48,664 nucleotides of DNA from a virus (Duplodnaviria > Caudoviricetes). Below the pieces are notes generated by a model. It had not been told where the DNA came from and ran no database searches. It saw only the letters and a list, made by a program, of their open reading frames with translations. The stretch covers positions 1 through 48,664 of IMG/VR virus record IMGVR_UViG_3300033407_000891; one strand, written 5' to 3'. Shown here piece by piece: positions 19,086 through 43,131 of this stretch (positions are counted from its first letter, which is position 1; each line of letters begins with the position of its first letter). Both the position numbers and the translations under genes were made by a program.

Positions 19086-19409
19086 CTAATTTCTTCCCTC
19101 CAAAATTTTAATTAGTCTTTCCTCAATCCATTTTCCTATAACTAAAGCTAAATTAAGGGCACCAATTAGATACAGAAGAGAAATTAAGGCCATAAGAAAA
19201 GTAACCCAATTCTCTCCTGCACCTGTAACTCTGATATGATGAACAAAAGGCTTTATATTGTCTTGGGCCAATGTCAAGAACGGAAAAAGAAGAATAAATA
19301 TAAAAGCAGAACTAGTCCATCTAAAATAACCTCTAATTACTCCTTCCCCCTTTCTTTTTATTCTTATCTCATTCTTTTCTTCATACTTTTGCAATTCCTG
19401 CTCTATCAT
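19086..19409 (-). CDS. Two-TM membrane protein
   Basis: Two hydrophobic helices; within the glycosylation cluster. Confidence 0.7.
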   Translation of the reverse strand: MIEQELQKYEEKNEIRIKRKGEGVIRGYFRWTSSAFIFILLFPFLTLAQDNIKPFVHHIRVTGAGENWVTFLMALISLLYLIGALNLALVIGKWIEERLIKILEGRN

Positions 19410-19744
19410 ATCTTTATATTTCCTATTAGGATATTTCCTACATAATTACTAAAAGCTGCTATACATATACCTACAAAACCTGCAATTTTATAATCTAACT
19501 CAAAAACCTCAACTAAACTTAAAAGAACACCCATATTTATTAATATTCCAATTCCACCAATAAACCAAAACTTAAAACCTTTAAGTAGAAAAGTCCTTAC
19601 TCTAAATTTTGAAAAAAATCTAAATATTAAAGCCCATACTCTAAATGCGGAAAAAAGAATGGGCTCCTCATCTAACTCTTTTAATGTTTTATAATGCATA
19701 AAACTATAAACCCTCATTAAATGGAGTTCTCTTTGAGCCTGCAT
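19406..19744 (-). CDS. GtrA-like lipid-linked sugar flippase (short)
   Basis: KFWFIGGIGILINMGVL..LVE...Y.IA......A..SNY is the GtrA N-terminal signature. Confidence 0.75.
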   Translation of the reverse strand: MQAQRELHLMRVYSFMHYKTLKELDEEPILFSAFRVWALIFRFFSKFRVRTFLLKGFKFWFIGGIGILINMGVLLSLVEVFELDYKIAGFVGICIAAFSNYVGNILIGNIKI

Positions 19745-20309: not shown

Positions 20310-20930
20310 TTATCTTGTGAACGTAGCCTTCTTCAAATACTGGGGGATTCCAGGCTTTTCTCTAGTATTATATAGAGGGAATATTTCTTTTGCATCATAA
20401 GTTAAAGTACTCCATTCCTTATATTTTCTGTTATAAATTTTTACTCTACATAAACCTGTTTTTTCATCTAAATTTGGATGTAATTCTAAATGAATATATC
20501 TTCTAACTTTCCTATCAATATCAGTTTCTTCAGGAGAAACTAAATATAAATCTGTAGCTCCTTTTCGTATTGTAGTAGCATAGGCTACAATAATCTGATT
20601 CACTAAAGAAGCAGAACGGTTAGAACCTGCTGTCAAATAGAATTCATCAAAACCGACTGTGCAGTTATCTAACTCGTTGTCTTCCATCATCCTAAGAAAT
20701 CTTCTTAAATCTACGTTACTACGGATAGCTAAAAATTCAGGGTCTTCAACTATATACCCTAATTCCCTCATTTCTTCCTTAGAAGGAAAATCTAAATGGA
20801 AATCAGAATATATTTTCTTTCCTAACAACCAATCTTCAAATAGCATTTTAGCACAAGTTACAGTTTTGCCTTTTCCTAAATTCCCTCCTATATAAACCAT
20901 CTTTCCGCCAATAAAATCTTGCATAACCAT
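20310..20930 (-). CDS. Zot/pI-like (FtsK-HerA superfamily) morphogenesis ATPase
   Basis: Walker A GNLGKGKT, IYSD, Walker B VGFDE, IRKG..DLYLVS, Arg-finger region IDRKVR; no C-terminal TM. Confidence 0.82.
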   Translation of the reverse strand: MVMQDFIGGKMVYIGGNLGKGKTVTCAKMLFEDWLLGKKIYSDFHLDFPSKEEMRELGYIVEDPEFLAIRSNVDLRRFLRMMEDNELDNCTVGFDEFYLTAGSNRSASLVNQIIVAYATTIRKGATDLYLVSPEETDIDRKVRRYIHLELHPNLDEKTGLCRVKIYNRKYKEWSTLTYDAKEIFPLYNTREKPGIPQYLKKATFTR

Positions 20931-20964: not shown

Positions 20965-21423
20965 CTATAATCTCCTATCACCCTCTTCATCCTCTTCACT
21001 ATGCAATCTAATATCTCGGAGTCCATCTAACATTTCTTTTCTACCTGCCCCTTTTTCTCCTATTCCAGGAGCTAACATATATCTTATTATTCTTTTGTGT
21101 ATATCCGTATTTGCCCTTCTATCCATAGCCAACATCTGCGCTATGGCTTCTATTTGACTAGATTTAATCCTAGATAATGATATTAAATTTAATACACTAC
21201 TTTCTGTTAACTTTCCAGGAGAGCTTTCGTCATCTGCACCATCATTAAATAATACATCAAACATAGCCGTTATTGGATGTTTAGCATCTTTTTCCTGTTG
21301 AGAAGGGACGAATCCAAGACTATTTGCTCTTCTATCTGCTATTTGTTGAGCCATACTCCTAATAGGTTTTTCTTCCTCTTCTTCCTCTTCTTCTTCTACA
21401 TCTTTATTATTTATATTTACCAT
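20965..21423 (-). CDS. Hypothetical protein with poly-Glu N-terminus
   Basis: GGAG RBS; directly upstream of the ATPase. Confidence 0.75.
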   Translation of the reverse strand: MVNINNKDVEEEEEEEEEKPIRSMAQQIADRRANSLGFVPSQQEKDAKHPITAMFDVLFNDGADDESSPGKLTESSVLNLISLSRIKSSQIEAIAQMLAMDRRANTDIHKRIIRYMLAPGIGEKGAGRKEMLDGLRDIRLHSEEDEEGDRRL

Positions 21424-21441
21424 TTTATTTCTCCCTCTATT

Positions 21442-21945
21442 TTACGCAAAAGGTTTCATGTAATGTGTAGCTGCTCCAATAGCTAGAAGAATAATTCCAG
21501 CAGATATAAAAATCATTTTTAGCAGAACTTCATTGTCAACTCCTCCAAAACCTTCTAGGAATTTCTTTATAGCTTGACTTTCTACAATCTTAGTTAATTC
21601 TTCTCCTCCAATTACTCCTGCACCTAGACCTTTATCAAAGGGTTGAGGATTAGGATTTCCTTCTAAATAATATCCAGTCTTTAACCATTCATATATTCCA
21701 GGAATAATTTGCAAAGGTGTTTCTTCTGTAGAAATTTTATAATCCCAATTATATGTAGTAACTCCTACCTTAAACGCCCCTTGGTGTAATTTTACTGCGT
21801 GGGGAAATACTTTTTTATTTTCATCTCTAATAAAAGCTCTAACTTTATCCTTAAGGGACATCTTTACATAATAATAATAGGTACCTAAAACTAAAAGAAT
21901 AACTCCTAAAGTAGCTAACGCCGTGGTTAATATTTCCACGTTCAT
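21442..21945 (-). CDS. Membrane protein with N- and C-terminal TM (putative assembly factor)
   Basis: Two terminal hydrophobic helices around a soluble domain; AGGAG RBS. Confidence 0.78.
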   Translation of the reverse strand: MNVEILTTALATLGVILLVLGTYYYYVKMSLKDKVRAFIRDENKKVFPHAVKLHQGAFKVGVTTYNWDYKISTEETPLQIIPGIYEWLKTGYYLEGNPNPQPFDKGLGAGVIGGEELTKIVESQAIKKFLEGFGGVDNEVLLKMIFISAGIILLAIGAATHYMKPFA

Positions 21946-21983
21946 TCTTTTCTCCTTCTCTATTTATTATTCCAGACCTTTTT

Positions 21984-22178
21984 CTATCTATATCTAAAAA
22001 ACCAAACTCCAAAAGCAGCAAATAATAATATTAATAAAGTCCAAAAAGGAACATCTTTAGTCCAAAAAATTAAATATAGAAATCCTAAAGCTACTCCTCC
22101 TAATCCTCCATATAAATTTTTAGTTAATCCAAAACCAAAAACCCCCATTATTCCTAGGGGAATCATTATATCAATCAT
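21984..22178 (-). CDS. Small hydrophobic membrane protein
   Basis: Almost entirely hydrophobic, Gly-rich. Confidence 0.7.
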   Translation of the reverse strand: MIDIMIPLGIMGVFGFGLTKNLYGGLGGVALGFLYLIFWTKDVPFWTLLILLFAAFGVWFFRYR

Positions 22179-22185
22179 TAGTCTT

Positions 22186-22611
22186 TTACTCTTTTATTTT
22201 ACAATTTCCTATTAGGACTTCTATATTTTCCTGTTTTGCCTCTGAATTTATAGTATTTATTCCTAACATATCAAAACCCATAACTTCCCCACTAAAAATT
22301 ATAATATCTCCTATCCGAATAGAGGCCCAATCCGAATATACACAAACAACCCCATTAGATAAAATTAGTTGGGACAATATAGGCTCTTTTCTAATTACCT
22401 CTGACCTAAAAGTTACAGTATGTCCTATTCTTAAATTTTCATCTTCGACTAGACTTTTAGCGTTTCTTATCCCGTCAATTTCTGAGTTATTTTCTCCTCC
22501 TACTATTTTTTCCCCATAAACCAAAAATCCCCCTAAAGCCATAACTCCAACCAGGAAAGCTAAAACTATAAATAGCCCCCAATTCTTATTTCTTTTCTTT
22601 GACTTATACAT
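22186..22611 (-). CDS. Membrane-anchored protein with OB-fold-like domain
   Basis: N-terminal TM; G.TV.F...V and IGD.I.F.G.V.G...I..C.I pattern. Confidence 0.65.
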   Translation of the reverse strand: MYKSKKRNKNWGLFIVLAFLVGVMALGGFLVYGEKIVGGENNSEIDGIRNAKSLVEDENLRIGHTVTFRSEVIRKEPILSQLILSNGVVCVYSDWASIRIGDIIIFSGEVMGFDMLGINTINSEAKQENIEVLIGNCKIKE

Positions 22612-22612
22612 T

Positions 22613-25117
22613 TTATTCCCCCTTCAAAAGTAATCTATCCCATGTTAGATACAAGAAAACAGCAAGTAAAATTAAAGCTAAGAAAAGATTTATAATATCT
22701 AATAATCCCATAATAATCATCATAAAATACATACATAACAATCCAAATTGTATCTTAGCAGGGGGAAATAACCCAAACATAAAAGTATAACCAAGTAAAA
22801 AGAACCCTGTAGCAAAGGAAATAAATATAATTATTCTACCCTGTATTGAATCCCAACCTATAGCTTGGATTAAATTATTTAGTTGTGTTTTGATATTATC
22901 CTCTATAGTTTCCCATGTTTCAGTGATATCATAATGAAACCCTTCACCTAAAAATGTATTCAAAACTCCCGAAGTTAATCTTAGTCTTACTATTCCATCC
23001 TCATTTGTATCAGGGTCTGTAGTATTTAATTCAATTGTTTGGGTATTTGTAAAAGTTGAAGATAAAGAAGCTGTTACTAAAGAATCTAAGTCAGTTAATA
23101 ATTTAGTAGAAAAATCAGTATACACTTTAGAAGTTTGAGAACTAACTATTACTTCAACTCTATTTCCTCTTGCAATATCGGGGATATCAAGAGTAAAAGG
23201 AGGATTATTTGATAAAATTAGAGCTTTATTTTGTGTAGTTTTTGGAGTTACTTCTGTAGGAGAATCAGATAATATAGAGAACGAATTGACTTCAAATTCA
23301 TTATCTACACCTATAATTCCCCAATCTAAAGCCTCAGCTTCGGGGTCTAAAGTAAAAGTATGAGTATCAACCAACTCCTCATCTAAGTACAAATCATATT
23401 CTGTATCCGAAACAGTTTCTACTCTTAAAGTATGAATATCTCCTTCTTGAAAATTTATTGTATCCCCTACTTTTTCTGCTTCATACGTTCCATCTTGATA
23501 AGCATAAACAAATAGACTTTTTAGTCTAGGGTCTATTACATATTGCATCCCAACCCATGTTGCTACAGAAGTTTCCTCTGTCTCCTCTTTATATCTAAAA
23601 GTTAATCCTACTAAATCTGTTCCTATTTCAAATTCAGCTTCTGCAATCACAGAATCTCCTTGTTCTGTAGTTACTATTCCTCTAAGATTTGAGGCTTCAA
23701 TCTTATTTACTAAAACGCTCTCTGTGTTTGTTGTATCTTCACTATAAGCTGCAATCCCACTAAATCCTTGAGTTATAGTTCTAATCCGTGTAGCGGAAAT
23801 TGCAAAATTACTGGGATTATCTTGTTCCTGAACAAAACACAACCATTCTTCATTTGTAGAATCTGTAGCAACATATTCTATAAGTCTGATTATATGCACT
23901 ACATCTCTAGTTATGGTATATGTAACAGTTTCAGGGCCTCCTCCCGAAGCAGTAGTAGCAGTTACTAATTCATCTGAATTAGCGTCAAGGCCACAAATAA
24001 AATCTAATCCTACATCGTCTGTGGAATCGAATCCAGGGCCAACAACCCAATTATTGTCCCCAGAAGGAATAATAACTTCCATGTAGATATTATTATAATC
24101 TTCTGTCTCAGGTACTAAAGCATTAACTATATTCCCTGAAGCTCCCGAATCATTAGAAATTTCTACATAGGGCCTAGAAATATTTATATTTATACCTGAA
24201 TCTACATTTGTACTCCAAGTTAATCCACCCGTATCCGTTGTAGAGCCATCTAAATTTCCTGTTCTATCAAAAGAGTCTGTATATAAATAAGCAGGAGTAG
24301 TTAAAGATGTAAAATCAGAATTTGCAGGAATTTCCCAATCCCCCTCTCCACTCTCAAACCAACGTAACCCAGGAAAATTAACTAAATCAGGGTCATGTGC
24401 ATCTAAAGAAACAGCAGAGCTAGTTTCATTTGTAAATGAATCAAAGAAATCACGTATCAAAACTGATTTAAAAGAAAATACTCCAGAGGAAGAAAGCTGA
24501 AGGGTACGAGAATTTATATCATCTGAAGATGTATCTAGTCCTGTAATTACAATATTCTGTAATAAACCTGTCCCATCTGCTATCCAGTCAAATGTATCTT
24601 CATTTCCTGCACCATCAGAATATTGAATTTGCCAGCCACCAGGCTGCTGAGCACATAAATATATTACAGAATATCCAGAAAGGGGAATTAAATATCTGTC
24701 TAGATTTGATGACCAATCAGTTTCAATATCTCCAATAAATAGTTGTCCCTCTCCCTCTACTCCACAATTAATATCTATAAAAGGGACAATAAAAAATATC
24801 TCCGAGACATTGCCTGAACCTAAAACAGTAATATAATAAGGATATAGGGAAGATAGGTCATTTTCTATAAAATTAAAACTAATTTCATCATTAACATCTC
24901 CTGTTAATTGTTGAGATTTTAAAACACTTTCAGTTATAGAGTTTATTGCTTGTACTGTTACTTCTTCATCCTGTGGAACATGGATAGTAAAAATAACTTC
25001 TGAACCTGCTAAGGAATTTGTTTTACTAACAGATAAAATATCTCCTGTCTCCTGAGCATAAACAGGAAAAGAAAATAATAATAAAATTAAAGGGAGGAAC
25101 CAGAAAATCCTCTTCAT
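22613..25117 (-). CDS. Large exported beta-rich virion/surface protein with C-terminal TM helices
   Basis: Signal peptide (VYA-Q), acidic S/T-rich ectodomain, YTDSFDR lectin-like start, 2-3 C-terminal TMs. Confidence 0.8.
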   Translation of the reverse strand: MKRIFWFLPLILLLFSFPVYAQETGDILSVSKTNSLAGSEVIFTIHVPQDEEVTVQAINSITESVLKSQQLTGDVNDEISFNFIENDLSSLYPYYITVLGSGNVSEIFFIVPFIDINCGVEGEGQLFIGDIETDWSSNLDRYLIPLSGYSVIYLCAQQPGGWQIQYSDGAGNEDTFDWIADGTGLLQNIVITGLDTSSDDINSRTLQLSSSGVFSFKSVLIRDFFDSFTNETSSAVSLDAHDPDLVNFPGLRWFESGEGDWEIPANSDFTSLTTPAYLYTDSFDRTGNLDGSTTDTGGLTWSTNVDSGININISRPYVEISNDSGASGNIVNALVPETEDYNNIYMEVIIPSGDNNWVVGPGFDSTDDVGLDFICGLDANSDELVTATTASGGGPETVTYTITRDVVHIIRLIEYVATDSTNEEWLCFVQEQDNPSNFAISATRIRTITQGFSGIAAYSEDTTNTESVLVNKIEASNLRGIVTTEQGDSVIAEAEFEIGTDLVGLTFRYKEETEETSVATWVGMQYVIDPRLKSLFVYAYQDGTYEAEKVGDTINFQEGDIHTLRVETVSDTEYDLYLDEELVDTHTFTLDPEAEALDWGIIGVDNEFEVNSFSILSDSPTEVTPKTTQNKALILSNNPPFTLDIPDIARGNRVEVIVSSQTSKVYTDFSTKLLTDLDSLVTASLSSTFTNTQTIELNTTDPDTNEDGIVRLRLTSGVLNTFLGEGFHYDITETWETIEDNIKTQLNNLIQAIGWDSIQGRIIIFISFATGFFLLGYTFMFGLFPPAKIQFGLLCMYFMMIIMGLLDIINLFLALILLAVFLYLTWDRLLLKGE

Positions 25118-25495
25118 TTATCGCCTCACAAATTCAATAGCTCTAATACCAAAGAATAAGACTACAGGAAAAAATATTCCAATTCTAACCAACTCTGGAA
25201 TTTCAGGATTAGTTGCTAATCCAACTAATATAATTAATGGGGGGAGAAATAAAGAACCCACTACTGCATTAGAGAATGTAAATCCAGAAGCAAAACCAAA
25301 ACCAGGTAAAACAGCAGAAGCTATAATAGTTGCTACAGTAGCCAAAAATCCAAATAAAAGAAAAGTTTCTACACTACCAAAAAGTGAAGGAACAACCCCC
25401 AAATCTGGACCTACACCTAAATTAGTCAAAGTAAAGTGTAGTATGGCTAAATATATATACATAAAAACGACTGTAGGGGCAAATGCACTAGTCAT
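25118..25495 (-). CDS. Multi-TM hydrophobic protein (putative virion membrane protein)
   Basis: About four hydrophobic helices. Confidence 0.78.
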   Translation of the reverse strand: MTSAFAPTVVFMYIYLAILHFTLTNLGVGPDLGVVPSLFGSVETFLLFGFLATVATIIASAVLPGFGFASGFTFSNAVVGSLFLPPLIILVGLATNPEIPELVRIGIFFPVVLFFGIRAIEFVRR

Positions 25496-25543: not shown

Positions 25544-27061
25544 CTATTCTGCTTCTCGTGGTTTTATAATTTTTGTTATTCTTAAAATAATAAATACTGT
25601 TACTAACCCTACAGGAATTAATAGAAGCCACCAATCATAATACTCATAAATTACACCTACAAAAACCCCTATCAAAACAAATCCTAACATTAAATGTACA
25701 GTTCTTGTTGCTGCATATAAAACTAACCCAATAATTCCTATAATTCCTGTAGCAAATACATCTTTAGGAAGAAGAAATAAAGAAGCTATGAAGTCAGCAC
25801 CAGATTTTAAATCTTCAGAAATTACTGTTTCAGGAAAAATAGTTTGCATAAAAGTTATTTCGTCAAGGGATAAAACTCTATCCCATAGACGCATTTCATC
25901 TAATACACCTTCAAAATTCTCTCCCATAACTAAATCATTTGTATTTGTTGTTAAACTTTCAGTCCCTCCCGAAATAGCATCGTCACAAACAGGAATAGCT
26001 GCACCAAATAACCCCCTACAAAAAATTACATCTCCTGTTGTTCCATCTCTTGTTACTGTATATAGAGCAGTTACTCCCTCTTGATCTTCAATTAAACTTG
26101 ATTGGAATGGAGTATTTGTAACTCCTGGGAGATTTAATTCTATATTTTCTAAAGAGGTGGCCTTAATAGCCTGGAAGCCATCCACAAAAGCTACTACACT
26201 TTGCCCTGCTGTAGTTGAATCAGTATCAATTTCAATTCTAAGTGTTGCTGTACTAGAAGGCGATGTAGCTGTTCGGGTAACTTGTACCCATCCAGAAGTT
26301 ACCCCCGTAAGAGAGTCAGTTAGAACCTGTAATTGATTCCCTCCACTATCCCTCCACCTAATACGCAATCGGACAGTATTTATATCAAAATCTATAATGT
26401 TTATCCAAACTCCGACACTCCATATTTCTCCTTCCGACGCTGAAATATCCTGACGTATAAAGCTGATACCTGCTGCGGAAGTATCGCTGATATTAATCTT
26501 AGCGGACGCTTCACCGAATTTTGATTCTTCCTCGGACCTTGTAATTGTCCCTGTATGATTGCCGCTAACCGTAGCTGTCCAATCATCTAATGCAGGAGAA
26601 TCCTCTTCAAATGAGGAATTTAATACTTCATTTTCAACTGTTCTTAATTCATATGCTCCATCTTTTACAAATAAATTTTGTGTTCCTTCATAAAATTCTA
26701 CTGCATCAGGATTCATCCAAAAAGAAAGAGATAAATCAGAATCCAAATCCAAAGAATCAGAATCCGAAACAGTTAAATCCGCAGAACCATCAAAATAATA
26801 TGCAGTATTTGCTGGCCCAGGAGTAGGAGTTGCACCTTGTACTAAAGCATTATTTTCATTATTTGCTTCAGCAGTATCGGGTGTAACAGTTCCACTAGTG
26901 GGAGTTTCTGCAATATCTACACTTCCAGGAAATTCAGTATCAAAAGACCAATAAGATACTAAATCTTCTTGCAGGTCGATAACTGCAAAAGAAATAGTGA
27001 AAACAAAAACAGAGAGAACAGCAAAAATTATAATTAATTTTTTACTTAAGCGAGAGAGCAT
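25544..27061 (-). CDS. LamG/ConA-like jelly-roll protein with inserted CBM-like domain and C-terminal TMs
   Basis: LVSYWSFD, YFDG, LSFWMNP, FEGVLDEMRLWDRVLS (LamG); LNSSFEE...W...QDI...FVDG (CBM4/9-like). Confidence 0.82.
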   Translation of the reverse strand: MLSRLSKKLIIIFAVLSVFVFTISFAVIDLQEDLVSYWSFDTEFPGSVDIAETPTSGTVTPDTAEANNENNALVQGATPTPGPANTAYYFDGSADLTVSDSDSLDLDSDLSLSFWMNPDAVEFYEGTQNLFVKDGAYELRTVENEVLNSSFEEDSPALDDWTATVSGNHTGTITRSEEESKFGEASAKINISDTSAAGISFIRQDISASEGEIWSVGVWINIIDFDINTVRLRIRWRDSGGNQLQVLTDSLTGVTSGWVQVTRTATSPSSTATLRIEIDTDSTTAGQSVVAFVDGFQAIKATSLENIELNLPGVTNTPFQSSLIEDQEGVTALYTVTRDGTTGDVIFCRGLFGAAIPVCDDAISGGTESLTTNTNDLVMGENFEGVLDEMRLWDRVLSLDEITFMQTIFPETVISEDLKSGADFIASLFLLPKDVFATGIIGIIGLVLYAATRTVHLMLGFVLIGVFVGVIYEYYDWWLLLIPVGLVTVFIILRITKIIKPREAE

Positions 27062-29579
27062 ATTTGCTCGTTCCCCATTGAATTACCGCAGTATTCCCAT
27101 CAGGACTTAAAGCTCTAACATAAGGGCCTTTGACACTTTTGGACTTTCCATAATTTATAAATCCCGCCGCAAAACTCCTAAATTGATTTTCTGTAATCCT
27201 TTTTGTTATTTTAGGAGTTTCTTCTTCGGACAAAAAAGGTGCTCTTAAAGGTGCAGGAGGAACAGGGGTAATACCTCCTCTTAATACTCCTGGAGTCCTT
27301 AAAGTTTCCGTTGCTGTTTGTGTTAATCTTGGAGTTGTAAACGGAGTTGTAGTTTCTGTTTGAGTTTCTATTTGCGCTTGAGTTTGAATTTGTGTTTCTT
27401 CTAGGGGTTGTACTTGAGTTATTTCTCTTGGTCTTGTTTGTAATTCTGTCTCTGTAACAGGTTTAGTTTCAACTTTAGTAATAGGAGCAAGTTTAGGAAT
27501 AGTTTCTATTCTAGTTTCCATAAAAATTTCAGGATTTGCTACTAATTGTTGAAGAGTTTTTACATTAGTGTTTAATTGTGGGAGGGAAGCAACATCTAAT
27601 TGCCTTGCAATTTCTCTTTGCTCTTGTATAATTCCCTGTCTTTGAGTTAAATTCTCTGTTCCTGCTAAGACTCCCTCTAAAACTAAAATTCTATTTACAA
27701 TATTAGCCTGTTCCTGTAATTGAGGAGAGAGTTGAGGAGTAGCTCTTTGTAAAGAATCTAAATAATTTCTTATTTCTGTATCTCTAGATTCCCTAGCAGT
27801 CCTACCAGGAATTGTAGACCTTAAGGAGACTCGGGATTTTATTGTTCCTATCCTACCTATTCGAGTAGATTTAGCTAAAACATTCTGTAATTGTCCCCTT
27901 AATATTCCAGAAATAGGAGCTATTTTTCCTAAATCAACATAGCCAGCTTGAGACCTTAAAGCTATAGGAGCAGTCCTTTTTACATAATCAATAATTCTAG
28001 GTGCTACATATCTAAGTCCCCGAATTAGTAGGGACGATGCAGCAAAAGAAACAGGAATACTAGCAATAGATATTCCAGCAGAAATTAAGTGTTGTTTTCT
28101 TTGTTCATCAAATATCATAGCAACTTCAGGTCTATCTTTATTTTCCTGAAGCCACTTATATTCAGCTACAGATATCCAATATCTTTCAGGTAATTCAAAA
28201 CCTGAACCTACAACAGAAAGTTGTAAATCTAATTTTTGGGCTATATCTACAGCTTTATTTATATTTTCAGCAATGGCCCTAGATTCTATGTCCTGGGCAA
28301 TAACGTCTGAAGGGCTAGGAGGAGGAACATTCGGATTTATTTCAAATCCAACAGTCACAAGCCCCGTTTCTTTATCCTCAAAAAGAGGATATTGGGAAGG
28401 GTCAATATTCCATTTCTCAATTAATTCTCTAGTTTCAGGGGTAAATTGAGCTAAATATTTTTGTCTATAATGCTCCTGTAATCCCTCTAGACCACTCTCC
28501 TCTAAAATCTGCTTTTCCTCTTGTCCTAAATCCTCATACCAACTCTTTAATTCTTCTATATCCTTTTGTTCAAATCCTATATTTATTAACTCAGCTTCAT
28601 TAGTACCTTTTCTTATTTCTTCTAATAAATCATATTCTCTTGTCTCTGTTATTTCTTGTTCTTGTTTTTGTTCAGGTACTATTTCCTGCTCTTCTTGTTC
28701 AGTTACAAGTATATTTAATTCTCGTTCGTAACTTCTCTCCCAATTTTCAATACTTCTATTTAACTGTAAAGCCTGTCTATTAAACTCTCTAGGAGAAAGT
28801 GTATCCCTTTGCTCTTCTAATTCTTGAACTCTTTCTATTAATCTTTCTCTATTAGTCTCAAAATCTCTAAGTCTAGCAGATATTCTATCTAATTCTTCCC
28901 CTTGTTGCTCTTCTTTTTCTTCCTCGGTATCTTTTATTTCTTGGTCTTTTTCTGATATTTCTTCTATTTTTTCTTCTTTATCCCTTTTTTCCTGTAGTTC
29001 TATCTGTCTCCTTGCTGCTTCTATTGCTATAATTTCTTGTGGACTCGGGATTCTTACTGATTTTTCCTCTTCTTCTTCCTGCTCTTGTTGTATTGTCTCT
29101 TCCTCCTGTTTTATAGCTTCCATTTTTTGTATAGAATTTTCTGGTTGTGTGTGGATAGCATCTGAATTATTTTGATTTTCACTTATTGGATTTTCGGATT
29201 CAACTCTAGCACTTATTCTCTCTCCCTCTACACTATCCCCATCCCTTTCAGGAGTATTAGGAGTACCATTAGGAGAATTGTCGGAGTTAGAAATATCGCT
29301 ATTATCAGAGGAAGGAGGATCAATATCCTCCAAAATATTTGGATTTGGATTTGGACTTGACTGGTCATTATAGTTATTTAAAACCTCTCTCTCACTATCA
29401 TCCAATTCTTGTTTATTTATTTCACCATTTCTCTCTAGCCTTTGCAATAAAGCTCCAGCTTCAGACTCCCTACCTTGAGATATTAAATCAGAGACTTGCT
29501 CTCTATAAGAATAAGTCTCTGGCTTGTATTCTTTTGGTTCTGTAGAATTAACTTTTATGGGAGTAATATTGACAGCCAT
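27042..29579 (-). CDS. Large acidic coiled-coil protein with one central TM
   Basis: E/Q-rich coiled coil, hydrophobic segment LISAGISIASIPVSFAASSLLI, T/Q/P-rich tail. Confidence 0.78.
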   Translation of the reverse strand: MAVNITPIKVNSTEPKEYKPETYSYREQVSDLISQGRESEAGALLQRLERNGEINKQELDDSEREVLNNYNDQSSPNPNPNILEDIDPPSSDNSDISNSDNSPNGTPNTPERDGDSVEGERISARVESENPISENQNNSDAIHTQPENSIQKMEAIKQEEETIQQEQEEEEEKSVRIPSPQEIIAIEAARRQIELQEKRDKEEKIEEISEKDQEIKDTEEEKEEQQGEELDRISARLRDFETNRERLIERVQELEEQRDTLSPREFNRQALQLNRSIENWERSYERELNILVTEQEEQEIVPEQKQEQEITETREYDLLEEIRKGTNEAELINIGFEQKDIEELKSWYEDLGQEEKQILEESGLEGLQEHYRQKYLAQFTPETRELIEKWNIDPSQYPLFEDKETGLVTVGFEINPNVPPPSPSDVIAQDIESRAIAENINKAVDIAQKLDLQLSVVGSGFELPERYWISVAEYKWLQENKDRPEVAMIFDEQRKQHLISAGISIASIPVSFAASSLLIRGLRYVAPRIIDYVKRTAPIALRSQAGYVDLGKIAPISGILRGQLQNVLAKSTRIGRIGTIKSRVSLRSTIPGRTARESRDTEIRNYLDSLQRATPQLSPQLQEQANIVNRILVLEGVLAGTENLTQRQGIIQEQREIARQLDVASLPQLNTNVKTLQQLVANPEIFMETRIETIPKLAPITKVETKPVTETELQTRPREITQVQPLEETQIQTQAQIETQTETTTPFTTPRLTQTATETLRTPGVLRGGITPVPPAPLRAPFLSEEETPKITKRITENQFRSFAAGFINYGKSKSVKGPYVRALSPDGNTAVIQWGTSKYALSLK

Positions 29580-29642: not shown

Positions 29643-29795
29643 CTACTCGTACCTACTAATTTCTGAAACTGCTTTATCTAGTGCATCTCTCTTAGAAACT
29701 TTTTGGTTCTTATAAATAGAATTAGCAGAGTTAAGAATTCTTCTCCAAATATCTTCTTTAGGATTTTTTCTGCGATCTTGTTTTCTAGTAGTCAT
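29643..29795 (-). CDS. Small basic protein after the capsid-like pair (50 aa); not in ORF track
   Basis: MTTRKQDRRKNPKEDIWRRILNSANSIYKNQKVSKRDALDKAVSEISRYE. Confidence 0.55.
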   Translation of the reverse strand: MTTRKQDRRKNPKEDIWRRILNSANSIYKNQKVSKRDALDKAVSEISRYE

Positions 29796-29859: not shown

Positions 29860-30060
29860 TTACCCTCTACTAGAAAAAGCTCCAGAAGCTAATCTCCACA
29901 GTAACACAGCCGCCAAAATGACGGCCATAACCGAGAAAATAGCCGTAACGCCATTAGCGCCTGTAACCGCTGCAAACTGCGTGATAATAGTAGGGAATAA
30001 TGCAGAAGCAACAACAGCCACTAACAAAACACCAATAACCCAGTTACCGATTTTGTCCAT
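29860..30060 (-). CDS. Putative major capsid protein paralog 2 (two-helix hydrophobic, spindle-virus VP1/VP3-like)
   Basis: Two hydrophobic helices joined by FPTIITQFAAVTGANG; basic C-terminus; strong GGAGGT RBS. Confidence 0.72.
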   Translation of the reverse strand: MDKIGNWVIGVLLVAVVASALFPTIITQFAAVTGANGVTAIFSVMAVILAAVLLWRLASGAFSSRG

Positions 30061-30087
30061 TATTTTTAACCTCCCTTCTACAAAAAA

Positions 30088-30294
30088 TTACTTACTACGA
30101 CCAAATGCACCACCTGCAATCTTCCATAGAAAGACAGCAGCTAAAACTACCGCCATAACAGAGAAGATTGCCGTAATACCATTAGCTCCTGTAACTGCCG
30201 CAAATTGAGTTACAATTGTTGGGAATAATGCACCCCCAATAACTGCAATCAATAAAAGAGCAATTACCCAGGTAGCCACAGAATTTCCTTTCAC
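30088..30294 (-). CDS. Putative major capsid protein paralog 1 (two-helix hydrophobic, spindle-virus VP1/VP3-like)
   Basis: Closely similar to 29860-30060 (LFPTIVTQFAAVTGANGITAIFSVMAV); GGAGGTGA RBS, GTG start. Confidence 0.72.
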   Translation of the reverse strand: MKGNSVATWVIALLLIAVIGGALFPTIVTQFAAVTGANGITAIFSVMAVVLAAVFLWKIAGGAFGRSK

Positions 30295-34054: not shown

Positions 34055-36700
34055 TTAATGAATCCCTCTGCTAACTAAAAATTCCTCAATTTGTTTAGAC
34101 TTACTAAACATATTTCCCCAATTATCCCCAACCTTAGTATCCACTTTGAAAGGAACTTTAGCAAATTCCTTCCCTAGATATTTCTCCCCAGTACCTACCA
34201 TAACTTCATCAATAACCTTCATACAATTATCAAAACTATCTTCTGGAACCTCAAACATTATTGAGTCATGAACAGGAAACATACAATGAAAACCGTATTT
34301 TTCCTCTAAAGGCTCAAGGTCTACAATGGATAAAAGGTTAAGGTCACTGGCTAATGATTGTATTTCAAAATTACAGCCTTGATTTTCCAAACGGCTTATA
34401 TTATAATCTGTAACTATAGGAAAGCGCCTTCTCCTTCCTAAAACAGTCTCTATCTCTCCATTATTAATTATTTTTTCCAACTGCCTCTTAGAGTATCCTT
34501 TAGCTTCGGGGTATTGTTTATCTAATTCATTTAACCATCTTTGAGCTTCATTTAAAGTAACATTATGCTCCAAAGCTACAGCATAAGCAGTTCTATTATA
34601 TAATCTTCCAAAAACAGTATACTTAGCCCTCTTTCTGAAAAGAGTATAAATTTCTTCATCCTCTTTTATACCTAATTCCATTCCTTCTCTAACCTTTAAA
34701 TACCTATCTCCGAACAATACAATAGAATTTTCATGGTGTAAATCCCTTCCAGCTCTGAAAATTTCTATCATATTTTGGTCATTTGTTACACAAGCATAAA
34801 TTCTTAATTCAAATTGCGCTTGGTCTTTTTCAACTAAAACATATCCAGGACGTGCTTTGAAAAAAGATCGAATCAAAAGATTATGAACAATATTCATAAT
34901 ACTAGGATTTCTTGCTGCACCTCTTCCTGTAACCGTAGCAGCTAGAGAGATAGAAGGATGGATACAAGAATCTTCCCTATAAATATCGTCAACTAATCCC
35001 TTGACATAAGTATTCTGGAGTTTTGTTAAGGAGCGATAATCTAGTAGGTAGCGGAGCATTTGTAATTCTCTAGGAAACTGTCCCATTATTTCCTCTGGAA
35101 TATCTGCTCTTCCAGAAACATTTTCATCCTTAATCTTATCTATATAAACCTCCCCAACCTCATTTTCAACATCTTTTCCGAGTCTAGCAACTAACCCATT
35201 CAATATATTTAAGGTTACAGCCTTATCAAGTCCAGCACTACCTACTGGACGCGTAAGTCCAAAGCCTCCATCAATTTTATTTCCAAATAAAATTTTCTGT
35301 ACCTGTTGGGTAGAACCCAATTGTACATAATTTCGAGTTAGTTTAGAGGCTTTCTCTTCTGTATACTCTATCTGCTCCTTTAAAATATTATTGACTTCTA
35401 AAAGCCTTCTTACATCAATATAAACTCCGCGCATCTGACTCTTAACAAATCTCCTACCTACAGGCATTAAAACAGTTTCATATAACTTTTTATCGGGTTC
35501 CTCCCACAAATTTTTCTCCATATATTCATCAATTAACTTAGTATAGTAAGAATCATAACCATTATAAAGAAGTAATTTATCCTTTGGAATTTTAGTATAA
35601 TCCCTCTTTTTTTTGCTTCTCCCTACATATGTATAAGGTAAAACTTCCTCTTCCCAGTTAGGAATAAAGAAAGTAGAAGTTGCAATTTCTTTTAAGGAAT
35701 GAGAGCCACCCGTTGCAGCGTATCCTTCTCCTTCTTGTCCACCAGAACCTATTGTAGATTCATCAGTAGAATAATGTTTTAAGAGAGTATCATCAGAAAT
35801 ACTTACCTGGAATCCAAGAAAAACCTTTCCTAATTCCTTATTCAAAAATATAACATCAAATGCAATCCCATTATGCCAAACAGAAGGATTATCCCTCAAG
35901 ATAGAAGCTAGAAGAAAGAGAGTTTCCTCAGAAAGAACAGTCCAATCCAAGGAAATAATAAAATCATTCTCATCACAAATAGAAATAGAAATTATATTTC
36001 CAGGATAAGCAGTTAGAGAGTCAGTCTCAATATCACACCAAATTTTTCCAGGGGTTAAAGAGGAAAGTAAGTTATAAGCATCAATATCAGTAAATGCAGA
36101 ATGGATAGGAGGAATATTATCTCCAAACCTATCATCTAAATAATTCTGCTTCAAAGCAATCAAAGTCCTAGCGAATCCAATAAATTCATTAAATGCTTGA
36201 CGCATAATAAAAGATGGATGCAAAAGAGGAAGCAAAGGCTGAGTAAAATAAGGAGATTGAAGTAGCTCCCCCTTAACTTTAGTTATTTGAAGTTTAGAGT
36301 TATTAGTAACAGCGTGCAAAGCCTCCGCGCCCAAAGCAACAACGACACGAGGAGAAAAAGAATTAACTTCTTTTATCAAACGGTCTCTACACAAATTACT
36401 TGCAGTTTCGTAATCATAATCATTTCCATTAGGTTCACAAGGAACAGCATTTGTGTAAGCTATCTTATTTCTATTTATACTTGCTATTTCTTCTGCCCCA
36501 TGCAGTAACTGTCCAGAATCCCCAACAAAAGGAATTCCTTTATTTACCTCATTATACCCAGGAGATTCTCCAACAAAAAGAATATCAATATCAACGGGAC
36601 TAGAAGGCAAGCCAGAACCGCAAGACTCAGAATATGGAGGAACCAATTTCTGAGACTTTAAAGGACAAGAATCGCACTTTGCACCAGGAAGTTTTTCCAC
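34055..36700 (-). CDS. polA: Family A DNA polymerase with N-terminal family-4 uracil-DNA glycosylase domain (SPO1-type)
   Basis: UDG: CxxCPL, VGESPG, FVGDSG, TNAVPC, HPS; 3'-5' exo DIET, HN..FD, YNGYD; Pol motifs DQAQFELR, RAK..FG.LY, VHDS. Confidence 0.93.
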   Translation of the reverse strand: MEKLPGAKCDSCPLKSQKLVPPYSESCGSGLPSSPVDIDILFVGESPGYNEVNKGIPFVGDSGQLLHGAEEIASINRNKIAYTNAVPCEPNGNDYDYETASNLCRDRLIKEVNSFSPRVVVALGAEALHAVTNNSKLQITKVKGELLQSPYFTQPLLPLLHPSFIMRQAFNEFIGFARTLIALKQNYLDDRFGDNIPPIHSAFTDIDAYNLLSSLTPGKIWCDIETDSLTAYPGNIISISICDENDFIISLDWTVLSEETLFLLASILRDNPSVWHNGIAFDVIFLNKELGKVFLGFQVSISDDTLLKHYSTDESTIGSGGQEGEGYAATGGSHSLKEIATSTFFIPNWEEEVLPYTYVGRSKKKRDYTKIPKDKLLLYNGYDSYYTKLIDEYMEKNLWEEPDKKLYETVLMPVGRRFVKSQMRGVYIDVRRLLEVNNILKEQIEYTEEKASKLTRNYVQLGSTQQVQKILFGNKIDGGFGLTRPVGSAGLDKAVTLNILNGLVARLGKDVENEVGEVYIDKIKDENVSGRADIPEEIMGQFPRELQMLRYLLDYRSLTKLQNTYVKGLVDDIYREDSCIHPSISLAATVTGRGAARNPSIMNIVHNLLIRSFFKARPGYVLVEKDQAQFELRIYACVTNDQNMIEIFRAGRDLHHENSIVLFGDRYLKVREGMELGIKEDEEIYTLFRKRAKYTVFGRLYNRTAYAVALEHNVTLNEAQRWLNELDKQYPEAKGYSKRQLEKIINNGEIETVLGRRRRFPIVTDYNISRLENQGCNFEIQSLASDLNLLSIVDLEPLEEKYGFHCMFPVHDSIMFEVPEDSFDNCMKVIDEVMVGTGEKYLGKEFAKVPFKVDTKVGDNWGNMFSKSKQIEEFLVSRGIH

Positions 36701-39731: not shown

Positions 39732-41969
39732 CTAACACTCCGAATATCCACAATTATAACATTTACTACAGCCTTCTTCCCTAACCAAACCACTTTCACA
39801 TTCAGGACACATAGAAGAAATAACAGATAAAATAGGCTCTTCCAAATAATTAGACAAAACTTTAGCAACACCATCAGGAATAGACGAAATAGAAGAGCCA
39901 TTAACCCAGATGGGTTTATCTCTTATATCCTTTAATTGATCAATTACTATTCTTAAATCTGCTCTTTCTCCATTTTCTCCTCTAACTTGTAGAAACTTAG
40001 AAATAACTCTACCCAATGCTTCAGCCCAACAATAAATATCTGAGCCTGATTTACCAATATTGATGAAAACTCCAAAAGGAACCTTTCTAACTACCCCTAA
40101 ACTATTCTTTTCCTCATAAATATTGACTGTTATATAACATTCTCCATAACTTGTATCTAATTTGTATGTATCCCCTGGAGAGACTAGAGGATGAACAAGA
40201 GAAGAAAGAATGTTAGAAATAGAAGAGGAAGGGGAAGAAGGGGAAAACTTAGTTAAAATTTGCCCTTCTCTAGACCCATCTCTATAAATTGTAATTCCTT
40301 TACATCCTAACTCCCAAGCTAATAAATATGCTTTTTCTACATCCTCAACTCTAGCCTTGTTTTCTAAATTAATTGTCTTTGATACCGCATTTCCTATATA
40401 CTTTTGCCAGATAGCCTGAGTTTTTACATGAGATTCAAGAGAAATTTTATCAGAGGAAATATACCAAGGAAATTCTGCACAAAATCCTTTACCTAGAACC
40501 TCTTGCTTTTGTTCCTCAGTTAATAATTCTTCTAATTCCCCTGCAACCTGCTTAAACTCCATTCCATCGGACGTAATTCGTTTAGTAACTAAAGAATAAT
40601 ATGGCTCTATCCCCGAAGAACAGCTCGCAATAATAGAAATTGTTCCTGTAGGGGCAATAGTTGTAGCCCCTAAATTTCTATTAACTCTTTCCTCTTCTTT
40701 TAAATTATATGCCGCAGGGTAAGCTCCACGTTCTCTAACTAAAATTTCCTGCGCTCTATTAGAATAATCCTTAAAATCTAACCCCATATCTTCAGTTAAC
40801 TCAAAAGCCTCTACGCTTCCATAAATAATCTTCATTTTAGCTAATAAATCTGCATACCCCATAACTCCTAATCCAGTTCTTCTAGTATTCTCTGCTGACT
40901 CTTCTATCTCTTTTAATGGATAAGGAGTTCTATCAATAACATTATCTAAAAATCTAGATGCAATAGATATACAATCTTCAAAAGAAGAATAATCAAAATT
41001 AGAACCCTTATCAGAGTCTATAAAAAAAGCACCCAAGTTGATAGAGCCCAGAGTGCAAGCCTCAAAACTTCTTAAAGGCTGCTCTGCGCATGGATTTGTT
41101 CCGTCCACTTTTCCCAAAAATGGAGTCATTTCATCTTGAATTCTATCTAAAAATACAACTCCAGGGTCTCCAGTTATCCAGGCATTTTTTATTAATTTAT
41201 TCCATATCTCTTTAGCTTCCACAAATCTCACTGTTTTTCCAGAAACAACATTCCTTAACTCATAAACTCCATTGTGCTCTAAAGCATACATAAACTCATT
41301 TGTAATCCCAACAGAGATATTGAAATTTTGCATTTGGGATAAATCTGATTTTAATTCAATAAATTCTTCGATATCTGGATGATGAACATTAAGAATAGCC
41401 ATATTAGCTCCACGCCTAGTGGAACCTTGTTTTATTTGCTCAGTAGCCTCATTAAAAATTTTCATAAAAGAAACAGGTCCACTTGCAATTCCTTGTGTAG
41501 AACCAACAATAGCACCTTTTTGCCTTAAATTAGAAAAAGAAAATCCTGTCCCTCCACCAGCTTTCTGCACTAACATTTGATTTTTAACTGCTTCACCAAT
41601 GTCTTCAATACTGTCTCCAACAGGAAGAACAAAACAGGCCATATAATTCAATCCATTATTTAGTCCTGCATTAAATAGGGTAGGAGAGTTAGGAAGAAAT
41701 TGACGAAGAGCCATAACATTATAAAATTTACGTGCCCAATAATCTACAACACTTAAATCTCCACCATAATTTAATTCTGCCAAGGCTATATCATAGGCAA
41801 CACGCCAAATAAACTCTTTTAGGTTTTCTTTTCTCTCACCATCTACAAACAATCTAACCTTAAAATATCTTTTCTCCAAAACTTGAAGAGAGTTTTCATC
41901 AAAATTAGGTTCAATTAAATCATCTGGAACAGCAGGGATTAAAGGGTAAAGTAAAGAAACAGAAGACAT
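39732..41969 (-). CDS. nrdJ: Class II (adenosylcobalamin-dependent) ribonucleotide reductase
   Basis: PNSPTLFNAG, ACFV, NPCAE, C.LGSINL, TIAPTGTIS, KGITIYRDGSR; TSCPD-like domain and C-terminal CPEC...EGC..C..CG. Confidence 0.95.
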   Translation of the reverse strand: MSSVSLLYPLIPAVPDDLIEPNFDENSLQVLEKRYFKVRLFVDGERKENLKEFIWRVAYDIALAELNYGGDLSVVDYWARKFYNVMALRQFLPNSPTLFNAGLNNGLNYMACFVLPVGDSIEDIGEAVKNQMLVQKAGGGTGFSFSNLRQKGAIVGSTQGIASGPVSFMKIFNEATEQIKQGSTRRGANMAILNVHHPDIEEFIELKSDLSQMQNFNISVGITNEFMYALEHNGVYELRNVVSGKTVRFVEAKEIWNKLIKNAWITGDPGVVFLDRIQDEMTPFLGKVDGTNPCAEQPLRSFEACTLGSINLGAFFIDSDKGSNFDYSSFEDCISIASRFLDNVIDRTPYPLKEIEESAENTRRTGLGVMGYADLLAKMKIIYGSVEAFELTEDMGLDFKDYSNRAQEILVRERGAYPAAYNLKEEERVNRNLGATTIAPTGTISIIASCSSGIEPYYSLVTKRITSDGMEFKQVAGELEELLTEEQKQEVLGKGFCAEFPWYISSDKISLESHVKTQAIWQKYIGNAVSKTINLENKARVEDVEKAYLLAWELGCKGITIYRDGSREGQILTKFSPSSPSSSISNILSSLVHPLVSPGDTYKLDTSYGECYITVNIYEEKNSLGVVRKVPFGVFINIGKSGSDIYCWAEALGRVISKFLQVRGENGERADLRIVIDQLKDIRDKPIWVNGSSISSIPDGVAKVLSNYLEEPILSVISSMCPECESGLVREEGCSKCYNCGYSEC

Positions 41970-42235
41970 TAAAACACCTTTTCCAAATCATTTTTAGTCC
42001 CAGATATCAAATGAGACTCGTTAACACTTAAAACATCCAAAGAATTAAAATTCTCTAAAGCAAATCTAACAGCTAGGTCAACATTATTTCTACAATTATT
42101 CTTCTGCATAACAGAGAATATAAATTTGTTTATGGTGTAGGGAGAAAGAAAAACCTTGGAAGCAATTTCCCTATATTTATAACCTTTAGCTAATAAACCC
42201 ACTACCTCCCTCTCCCTAGCAGTTAAAATTAACAT
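41969..42235 (-). CDS. LuxR-type HTH regulator
   Basis: LTAREREVVGLLAKGYKYREIASKVFLSPYTI. Confidence 0.88.
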   Translation of the reverse strand: MLILTAREREVVGLLAKGYKYREIASKVFLSPYTINKFIFSVMQKNNCRNNVDLAVRFALENFNSLDVLSVNESHLISGTKNDLEKVF

Positions 42236-42256: not shown

Positions 42257-42341
42257 TGGTGCCCCGTATAGGATTTGAACCTATATGCTATAAAGCGGTT
42301 GATTTTAAGTCAACTGTGTATACCTATTCCACCAACGGGGC
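42257..42341 (-). tRNA. tRNA-Leu(TAA), CCA encoded
   Basis: Anticodon arm GTTGA-CTTAAAA-TCAAC, long variable arm, GGTTCAAAT T-loop, acceptor stem GCCCCGT/ACGGGGC. Confidence 0.93.
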
Positions 42342-42349
42342 ATTTAAAA

Positions 42350-42553
42350 CTAACCCCAAAGAATAAAACCAAACAAGCCCAATAACCAATTTGGTACGCC
42401 AGGATGGAAAAGAATAAAACCAACAAGAAGTCCTATCACCAAAGCATAAATTTGTGTAATTACAGCAAACTTAACTAATCTATTAAAAGTAGCAGGAAAA
42501 TTAGATTGCATTTCCTTTTCTTCAGCTCTTACTCTCTTAATATAATTAATCAT
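42350..42553 (-). CDS. Small membrane protein
   Basis: Hydrophobic C-terminal half; between tRNAs. Confidence 0.6.
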   Translation of the reverse strand: MINYIKRVRAEEKEMQSNFPATFNRLVKFAVITQIYALVIGLLVGFILFHPGVPNWLLGLFGFILWG

Positions 42554-42678
42554 AATCTATCCTTATTCTCTATCTCAAATCTCTTCTTTATTTTCTTTTC
42601 TTCTTTGTAGGCCCAATAACCAATAAAACCCATAATAATAATTAAAGAATAAGATAATAACATCCAAAATAAATCCAT
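42550..42678 (-). CDS. Small single-TM protein (42 aa); not in ORF track
   Basis: GAGGAG RBS; MDLFWMLLSYSLIIIMGFIGYW...; ATGA overlap with next gene. Confidence 0.55.
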   Translation of the reverse strand: MDLFWMLLSYSLIIIMGFIGYWAYKEEKKIKKRFEIENKDRL

Positions 42679-42694
42679 AAAAACTCCTCTTATT

Positions 42695-42770
42695 TGGTTT
42701 GGGGAGAAGGACTCGAACCTTCAATTTCCTGAGCCAAAATCAGGCGTCATACCAATTAGACCATCCCCAA
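42695..42770 (-). tRNA. tRNA-Gln(TTG), CCA encoded
   Basis: CCTGA-TTTTGGC-TCAGG anticodon arm, GGTTCGAGT T-loop, TTGGGGA/TCCCCAA stem. Confidence 0.92.
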
Positions 42771-42785
42771 ATAAATTATAAAAAG

Positions 42786-42858
42786 CGCCCTTATCGGGAC
42801 TCGAACCCGAAGCCTACTGATTAGAAGTCAGTTGCTCTATCCATTGAGCTATAAGGGC
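42786..42858 (-). tRNA. tRNA-Arg(TCT)
   Basis: ACTGA-CTTCTAA-TCAGT anticodon arm, TAGCTCAATGG D-arm, GGTTCGAGT. Confidence 0.94.
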
Positions 42859-42869
42859 AAGAATAAATT

Positions 42870-43031
42870 TTATAGCTCCTCTAGATATACAGAGAATCCC
42901 TCAATATTTGCATTGAATAACTCTATCAAACCGTCTAAAGCCGCAGTATGAGCAGAAGCAAAAGCTACTTGACTAACCAAAAGTAAAAGTACAACTACCC
43001 AAGAGAAAATAGAAACAATTCGCCAACTCAT
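42870..43031 (-). CDS. Small exported/TM protein (53 aa); not in ORF track
   Basis: AAGGAG RBS; signal-peptide-like N-terminus. Confidence 0.55.
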   Translation of the reverse strand: MSWRIVSIFSWVVVLLLLVSQVAFASAHTAALDGLIELFNANIEGFSVYLEEL

Positions 43032-43058
43032 ATAAACTCCTTATGAGTAATAAAAAAG

Positions 43059-43131
43059 TGCCTCCGGTGGGACTCGAACCCACAACCTTCTGATTAAAAG
43101 TCAGACACTCTGCCAATTGAGTTACAGAGGC
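43059..43131 (-). tRNA. tRNA-Lys(TTT)
   Basis: TCTGA-CTTTTAA-TCAGA anticodon arm, GGTTCGAGT, GCCTCTG/CGGAGGC stem. Confidence 0.94.

Follow-up and report, generated by a model that had tools for sequence, protein, structure and literature searches.

A Tandem Pair of Likely Spindle-Virus-Type Coat Proteins in a 48.7-kb Soil Virus Genome

The Tandem Gene Pair

The window analyzed here is the whole of one IMG/VR virus record (48,664 nt, classed as linear, GC content ~34%). Two small genes lie head to tail on its minus strand, 27 nt apart: candidate coat protein B (30088-30294; 68 aa, GTG start, two hydrophobic helices) and candidate coat protein A (29860-30060; 66 aa, ATG start, predicted helix-turn-helix with helices at residues 3-33 and 35-63). 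An earlier note on this DNA had placed two open reading frames here, and both are found on the minus strand; the motif it read in them, LFPTI(I/V)TQFAAVTGANG(V/I)TAIFSVMAV(I/V)LAAV.LW(R/K), is present as claimed. The proteins are 70% identical over 61 residues, and the pair constitutes the longest direct repeat listed in the window (190 nt, 73%). Across 62 aligned codons, differences at first, second and third positions number 12, 9 and 31 (dS 1.05, dN 0.20, dN/dS 0.19). In a 32-codon core (residues 20-51) they number 3, 0 and 16, with 15 synonymous and 3 non-synonymous codons and a ratio of 0.03. Purifying selection acts on the paralogues and the duplication is maintained, as had been proposed beforehand from the third codon positions. 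The paralogues carry no amino-acid change in contig Ga0214471_10000427, which comes from a related strain and aligns in three blocks at 93-99% nucleotide identity; the DNA polymerase (PolA) there differs by 59 non-synonymous and 148 synonymous codons.

Both proteins are hydrophobic (GRAVY 1.4), with two hydrophobic segments and a basic tail each. Their Shine-Dalgarno sites rank first (68-aa gene, -17.5 kcal/mol) and second (66-aa gene, -12.8 kcal/mol) among 72 genes (median -6.9 kcal/mol), and the density of promoters and terminators near them is not raised (21 vs. 20.8 and 3 vs. 3.1 expected). AlphaFold2 modeled the 66-aa paralogue, from a three-sequence alignment, as helices 3-33 and 35-63 joined by a one-residue turn (mean pLDDT 77, pTM 0.41). 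The pair thereby shares the hydrophobicity and the predicted hairpin of SSV1 VP1/His1-type capsid proteins, a generic trait.

The sole other family member known, P0004, is 79% identical and lies on a 1.4-kb contig. Relatives of the coat candidate, the ATPase described below and PolA were sought in IMG/VR, and relatives were sought in GTDB genomes, in both cases without a find; the 66-aa paralogue has none among annotated phages either. A search of 1.84 billion representatives with the coat family returned the query and six weak matches, two of which were inspected and are spurious. A degenerate coat-motif search gave 12 loci, of which the 11 readable in frame are all unrelated.

Likeness to Spindle-Virus Capsid Proteins

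Profile searches relate the pair to the capsid proteins of spindle-shaped viruses, with no capsid match passing a curated cut-off. The best Pfam match of the 66-aa paralogue is His1_capsid (PF25665; E 0.012, 16 bits vs. a cut-off of 27). This model matches two of three aligned family members, its best value (E 6.8e-5) coming from the close homologue, and in a six-frame scan of the genome it marks the 66-aa frame alone; with the limit relaxed to E 10, 8 of 14 control genomes give a match as well, none of them above the cut-off. The best PHROG of the 68-aa paralogue is phrog_5402, the fusellovirus VP3 family (92 positions; E 0.072, below cut-off), which SSV1 VP1 matches at E 1.7e-28. The PHROG of SSV1 VP1 itself, phrog_11172, has no match anywhere in the genome; for scale, the genuine His1 capsid protein reaches E 0.029 against it and the Muninn capsid protein gives no match. 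Among 54 proteins of five spindle viruses, His1 ORF21 is the top match of both paralogues (E 0.0008 and 0.12), and the His1 capsid outscores SSV1 VP1 for both. By ESM Atlas features, the 66-aa protein lies at 0.91 to a viral cluster in which 12% of members carry His1_capsid.

The likeness is concentrated in the first helix. Hhalign aligns helix 1 alone, with its proline and glutamine, to SSV1 VP1 (P 0.0012, probability 19%), and across profile comparisons to spindle coats helix 1 aligns and helix 2 does not (probabilities 1-19%). The earlier note had quoted the VP1 stretches LLPVIVSQV and VTGTNATLL, both of which occur in record X07234, and had drawn a parallel through a proline, a glutamine and a VTG-x-N turn; the Pro/Gln helix does align, weakly, and the VTG-x-N turn was not recovered as an aligned block. 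The pair has a shorter loop than His1, VP1, VP3 and Muninn, and its helix 2 is without the proline that those coats carry there. A coat profile assembled by hand from six members gives the 66-aa protein 7.2 bits (6 of 500 shuffles score as high) and the 68-aa protein 3.2 bits (73 of 500). Small profiles of this kind are insensitive, since one built for the ATPase failed too (52 of 500). Neither paralogue has an N-glycosylation sequon (0.2-0.3 expected), and all six archaeal reference coats, among which we count PAV1 ORF121 and TPV1 ORF112 as presumed coats by their pattern, have at least one.

Structure searches added no spindle-virus match. Foldseek found nothing at E <= 0.001 in BFVD, where 22 weak rows name no spindle-virus protein, or in the PDB, where both rows are a transducer hairpin; a PDB sequence search gave chance matches only. 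The proposed likeness to spindle-virus capsids is carried by two profile libraries at sub-threshold scores and by gene context, and found no echo in these two fold searches. Because the scores are sub-threshold and Foldseek returned no spindle capsid, we grade homology of the pair to spindle-virus capsid proteins, judged from sequence, as no more than likely.

Two other readings of these proteins have to be weighed at this point. They could be inovirus-like procoats, in which a signal peptide is cut after residue 20 or 22 to leave a 46-aa single-helix coat for a filament extruded by a pI-like ATPase. By eye, each of the three sequences has small residues at -3/-1 ahead of its conserved Leu-Phe-Pro, and the remainder would be 46 aa long in both paralogues. 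However, the His1 and SSV1 profile matches span helix 1 and its Pro-Gln, which those viruses retain, and cleavage would create an N-terminus free of acidic residues, which the coats of Ff and Pf1 carry there. We consider this reading unlikely. Alternatively, the pair could have no place in the virion and act in the membrane instead, in superinfection exclusion or as holin-like or pilin-like proteins; the record would then be part of a larger tailed phage, with the head genes missing from the assembly. The lack of a significant fold match agrees with this, as does the observation that unrelated membrane families score weakly, near the capsid matches. Against a pilin, the type IV pilin Glu5/cleavage motif is absent by eye and the Flp pilin family reaches only E 4.5.

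The Downstream Membrane, Adhesin and ATPase Block

All genes of this block lie on the minus strand. Directly after the pair comes a 50-aa basic protein (29643..29795; 14 K/R, 7 D/E), for which position and charge make a role as DNA-binding virion protein possible; it has no significant likeness to SSV1 VP2 (E 0.66). The next gene encodes a low-complexity protein of 845 aa in which a single hydrophobic segment lies at the centre (27042..29579; no Pfam or PHROG match). PAV1 ORF898 is similar in size and also has one central segment, a likeness without a sequence match.

The third protein (25544..27061; 505 aa) combines LamG (PF13385, E 3.5e-8) and CBM_4_9 (PF02018, E 0.0018) domains with an N-terminal anchor and three C-terminal helices; its CBM stretch provides the only tail-category match of the genome (E 0.0018). 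It is 72% identical to its counterpart in the related strain and its neighbours are 94-100% identical, which makes it the one fast-changing gene of the block, as expected for a receptor-binding protein. On its sequence, that role is likely. As a separate observation, the central CBM-like domain has been swapped or has strongly diverged between the strains (26064-26707 vs. Ga0214471_10000427:13312-13964), and its flanks are conserved.

A 125-aa four-helix membrane protein (25118..25495) sits between the two large surface proteins; its top match among the 54 reference proteins is PAV1 ORF140, which holds the equivalent position (E 0.015). The second large protein (22613..25117; 834 aa, surface-like) has an N-terminal signal and two C-terminal helices and no Pfam or PHROG match. 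Four small genes (20965..22611; 141, 64, 167 and 152 aa), three of them with membrane helices, precede the ATPase gene. The 152-aa protein resembles the product of the gene preceding the Muninn ATPase (pairwise E 0.001), and the 167-aa protein gives no alignment with the Muninn 124-aa protein. A by-eye idea that the 167-aa and 152-aa proteins correspond to SSV1 B277 and A153 drew no support from hand-built profiles of the insensitive kind noted above, with 50 and 277 of 500 shuffles scoring as high.

The block ends in a 206-aa Zot/pI-like P-loop ATPase with a Walker A motif (20310..20930). In the ESM Atlas it lies at 0.96 to Zot clusters, with a predicted-fold TM of 0.71-0.77, and its top match among the 54 spindle-virus proteins (E 4e-7; pairwise E 9e-7) is an unannotated frame of the Muninn virus. 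The Pfam Zot HMM does not match it, pairwise comparison gives no match to SSV1 B251 (E 1.7) or His1 ORF16 (E 1.0), and a word-index search returned the protein itself and no other homologue. From sequence and model, it is likely a genome extrusion or packaging motor. The Muninn frame (OM716000, 4022-4672, plus strand; 216 aa) lacks Walker A from its listed start, and the true start may lie upstream. That the closest ATPase clusters are Zot/pI is in keeping with the procoat reading; that the pair heads a coherent membrane, adhesin and ATPase block speaks against non-virion membrane proteins.

Replication, Modification and Other Genes

The genome encodes a fusion of family A DNA polymerase and family-4 uracil-DNA glycosylase (PolA-UDG; 34055..36700, minus; PF00476, E 2e-59; PF03167, E 1e-20). 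A second polymerase-like gene, a relative of protein-primed family B enzymes (PolB; 8584..10395, minus), matches His1 PolB (pairwise E 1e-5), phrog_11768 (E 9e-5) and six Microbacterium phages (E 8e-4 to 7e-3); by eye, its exonuclease and motif B look degenerate. One 49-kb genome thus carries two unrelated DNA polymerase genes. Nearby, an internal duplication at 10342-11320 comprises a pair of 60-70 aa paralogues (88% over 140 nt), and the start of the PolB-like gene recurs near 10857-10919. Further genes encode Sak4, a Cas4-like nuclease, ribonucleotide reductase (RNR), MazG and a helicase. The minus strand also carries a LuxR-family helix-turn-helix regulator (41969..42235; PF00196, E 1.9e-12, above cut-off) and four tRNAs (42257..43131; Leu-TAA, Gln-TTG, Arg-TCT and Lys-TTT), with the terminal CCA encoded in the Leu and Gln genes. 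Capsid or head, portal, terminase and integrase families have no Pfam or PHROG match among the 50 proteins scanned, which include every gene above 150 aa on the 73-gene list.

Two multi-pass membrane proteins (560 and 648 aa) with a GtrA-like protein (15464..19744, minus; PF04138, E 1.8e-7) and a GT2 glycosyltransferase (38472-39170, minus; PF00535, E 3e-17) possibly form a lipid-linked glycosylation set; a TMEM260-like match reaches only E 0.18. Cargo for surface modification, all on the minus strand, occupies 15464-19744, 38472-39170, 30355-31443 and 13475-15403, and includes a glucose/sorbosone dehydrogenase-like propeller and a 642-aa anchored protein without a family match. Small basic frames at 5229-8597 and 10403-11319 (minus) give several weak SPOR-domain matches (best E 5.8e-5, 8083-8280), and two His-rich frames lie at 6447-6644 and 7403-7591. 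Small frames near both ends (693-989, minus; 1362-1616, plus; 48121-48345, plus) share (I/M)-x-K-x-E-(Y/W) by eye and are possibly diverged paralogues. The related contig has an extra 277-aa gene (5519-6352, plus) between its 131-aa and 569-aa genes, presumably a ThyX thymidylate synthase, going by its motif.

The Host Domain

Sigma-70-type promoters (TTGACA-17-TATAAT, at most one mismatch) number seven, with 0.82 expected and none of 100 shuffles reaching seven. Five lie on the minus strand (556-584, 961-989, 12327-12355, 45634-45662, 47879-47907) and two on the plus strand (48063-48091, 48379-48407), at both ends and ahead of two replication clusters; those at the termini point outwards. Archaeal RNA polymerase does not read such promoters, and five archaeal spindle-virus genomes (82 kb) contain none. 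Of 73 starts, 25 have AGGAG ahead of them and one has GGTGA, and LuxR and PolA pass their Pfam cut-offs. The tRNA-Gln begins with U; archaeal tRNA-Gln begins with A, and a U start with encoded CCA is a bacterial reading. A tRNA search matched 230 phage records, and the 25 matches listed are all phages, in a collection that consists mostly of bacteriophages. As further observations on the promoters, most have GAGAG or GAG before the -10 box (556-989, 12327-12379, 45634-45713, 47879-48407), and four of the seven share a 14-nt motif ~25-45 nt upstream, a candidate operator.

The host is very probably a bacterium, a reading that the lack of sequons in the coat candidates also favours. Within bacteria, Chloroflexota is a lead only: it is the commonest phylum among the five members of known phylum in the nearest predicted-structure cluster of the 66-aa protein, and a Dehalococcoides primer scan found nothing.

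The competing idea, an ordinary large archaeal spindle virus of the Itzamnaviridae/Tepeuviridae kind that acquired bacterial-looking genes, draws on several features. The PolB-like gene is of the protein-primed type, as in His1 and Muninn, and RNR is near Archaeoglobi enzymes, being equally close to archaeal and bacterial ones (7 vs. 8 of the 15 named, among 120 matches listed). In the literature consulted, classified spindle viruses are described with archaeal hosts, the spindle shape is regarded as peculiar to archaeal viruses (PMC10866085, PMC10848233), and ANME-1 has large spindle genomes that pair two coat genes with ThyX and an enzyme arm of its own (PMC9894754). The seven sigma-70 promoters, LuxR and PolA, the tRNA-Gln start and the ribosome-binding sites weigh against it. 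So do the two large surface proteins, in which sequons are not enriched (3 vs. 3.8 and 5 vs. 8.7 expected), unlike six of eight archaeal-virus surface proteins, where they exceed expectation by at least half. An archaeal virus is accordingly very improbable.

Completeness and Evidence for a Single Replicon

CheckV puts completeness at 27%, and the hallmarks of Caudoviricetes (HK97 capsid, portal, terminase) are missing among the 50 proteins of a record that may be incomplete. This estimate, and the presence of PolA-UDG, Sak4, the Cas4-like nuclease, RNR and MazG, all common in tailed phages, are what a fragment of a larger tailed phage would lead one to expect. In soil run X1, possibly the sample that the record came from, depth is 36.5-43.3 over 637-17617 and 37.8 over 38011-44400, and over the first 640 nt it is only 4-6, down from 36. 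The longest contig carrying these proteins is 48,863 nt, and the outward promoters mark both ends; taken with the coherent block behind the pair, these points make non-virion proteins on a tailed-phage fragment quite improbable.

Depth, a promoter style common to both genome arms, and the PolA-coat-ATPase order kept in contig Ga0214471_10000427 indicate that both arms are one replicon. The record was found in soil metagenome runs, and pieces 99-100% identical also occur in X2, X4 and X6; X3 and X5 contain small shares of it, and no RNA data set is among the runs listed. A hairpin can form from the first 105 nt (raw folding energy -19.4 kcal/mol); the inverted repeat at 1-105, with arms that include 17-28 and 87-98, lies at the low-depth left end and is a possible terminus or origin. 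The last 600 nt contain no terminal inverted repeat of at least 15 nt, and the true ends may be missing. The depth drop, the hairpin and the longest contig fit a near-complete linear genome with blocked ends.

Proposed Assembly Mechanism and Significance

A coat role for the pair fits because no head, portal or terminase match was found and because a lectin-like membrane block ending in a Zot/pI-like ATPase follows it. We regard it as moderately probable that the paralogues are the major coats of a tailless DNA virus, likely of a bacterium, that is built at the host membrane in the style of spindle viruses. A coat design known mainly from archaeal spindle viruses would then likely also serve a bacterial virus.

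Both paralogues would be produced in large amounts and enter the cytoplasmic membrane, each as a helical hairpin. Driven by the ATPase and the small membrane proteins encoded beside it, the DNA would pass out through the membrane, with the hairpins polymerizing helically around it; their basic C-termini would face the DNA, as would the 50-aa basic protein. The LamG/CBM protein may sit at the particle tip and bind host glycans. The two paralogues may co-assemble in one shell, which would account for a helix-turn core that is nearly frozen between divergent ends. Early genes would be transcribed from host sigma-70 promoters; since no strong promoter precedes the coat pair, late expression may use a weaker site at 31490 or the LuxR-type protein. 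For a particle holding 49 kb, a spindle would be a more likely shape than a filament.

A bolder reading, which we put forward as rather doubtful, is a family of non-integrating, self-replicating bacterial viruses with lemon-shaped virions, in which a linear genome with blocked ends would combine an archaeal-type hairpin coat and extrusion module with a tailed-phage-type PolA arm and the relic of a protein-primed PolB. If true, it would break the rule that confines spindle morphology to archaea.

Automatic tools would class such a genome as an incomplete tailed phage. If particles confirm the coat role, many of the "phage fragments" that lack a capsid gene may turn out to be complete viruses assembled at the membrane, and it becomes possible to test where the spindle and filamentous coats of the two domains originated. 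The sub-threshold homology and the negative fold searches hold the verdict at likely coat proteins of the spindle-virus type.

Comparison With Known Systems

In Fuselloviridae, SSV1 likewise has a tandem of hydrophobic coat paralogues, and the small basic gene behind that tandem, VP2, has a positional counterpart here. It differs in being circular, 15.5 kb long, integrating and archaeal, with a long leader on VP1 and sequons in both coats. The fusellovirus frame that the earlier note suggested does not hold for the genome as a whole. Fuselloviridae are circular (~11-24 kb) with a tyrosine integrase; this 48.7-kb linear record is three times the size of SSV1, has no integrase among 50 proteins, and bears bacterial promoters, LuxR, PolA and tRNAs. 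Its sigma-70 promoters, LuxR and PolA, and its recovery from soil metagenome runs, likewise do not suit a Sulfolobales host.

Halspiviridae (His1) and Muninn share the best-matching coat family (PF25665) and a protein-primed PolB relative, and they too separate coat and ATPase by genes for adhesins and small membrane proteins; in Muninn, the best ATPase match is the frame that follows two small genes. These viruses differ in size (12-14 kb), archaeal hosts, terminal inverted repeats, a single coat gene and coat sequons. PAV1 shows the same succession of large surface protein, small membrane protein, large surface protein, small genes and P-loop protein, with LamG in both large surface proteins there and in one here. 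However, PAV1 is circular, 18 kb and archaeal, and the support in sequence is the single match at E 0.015.

Itzamnaviridae and Tepeuviridae of ANME-1 are large predicted spindle viruses (tepeuvirus 72.6 kb) with a structural arm apart from the enzyme arm and an accessory ThyX; the two coat genes of Itzamnaviridae are divergent, whereas the present pair is 70% identical (PMC9894754). They differ further in archaeal host, RNA-primed PolB and circular genomes (PMC9894754). The literature compared also includes, in part, PMC13595969 and PMC9246712.

Inoviruses (Efunaviria) combine a hydrophobic helical coat with an FtsK/pI-like ATPase, a combination also found here. Their genomes are small, circular and single-stranded (4-11 kb), unlike this one of 48.7 kb with PolA, helicase and RNR. 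Characterized filamentous phages package 4-11 kb of ssDNA, which counts against procoats in a genome of this size with PolA; the same source proposes filaments for the similar gene set of IME1, in favour of them (bioRxiv 10.64898/2026.09.15.751708).

IME1 elements of Dehalococcoides and other Chloroflexota, reported in October 2026 as a first bacterial instance, encode SSV1-VP1-like groups HOG00/HOG01 and a pI-like ATPase, and their morphology was left unresolved (bioRxiv 10.64898/2026.09.15.751708). As outlined there, they resemble the present genome in bacterial host, lack of tailed-virus hallmarks, two small hydrophobic groups, a pI-like ATPase and membrane-anchored adhesin-like proteins. 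Beyond this preprint, the titles and abstract openings surveyed outside subscription journals name no spindle-type coat in a bacterial virus. By the preprint's account, IME1 elements measure 21-28 kb, have 44-52% GC, integrate by a tyrosine recombinase (at a tRNA) and encode a primase-helicase. Unlike them, the present genome has 48.7 kb, ~34% GC, PolA, RNR, tRNAs and a PolB-like gene, in a comparison that takes HOG00/HOG01 by description only. The tyrosine recombinase, primase-helicase, ~23-kb size and tRNA integration that define IME1 in that text were not found here, among 50 proteins. The coat-like genes follow the ATPase gene in IME1 as described, and precede it by 9 kb here.

Genome criteria place this virus outside fuselloviruses, inoviruses and IME1, and probably outside halspiviruses too. 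What it suggests is a coat and motor of the same sort on a 49-kb soil virus with its own polymerase, in a gene set that, as read from the genes, works like a spindle-virus morphogenesis module. The genome is a larger variant of the IME1-like precedent, with replication genes of its own.
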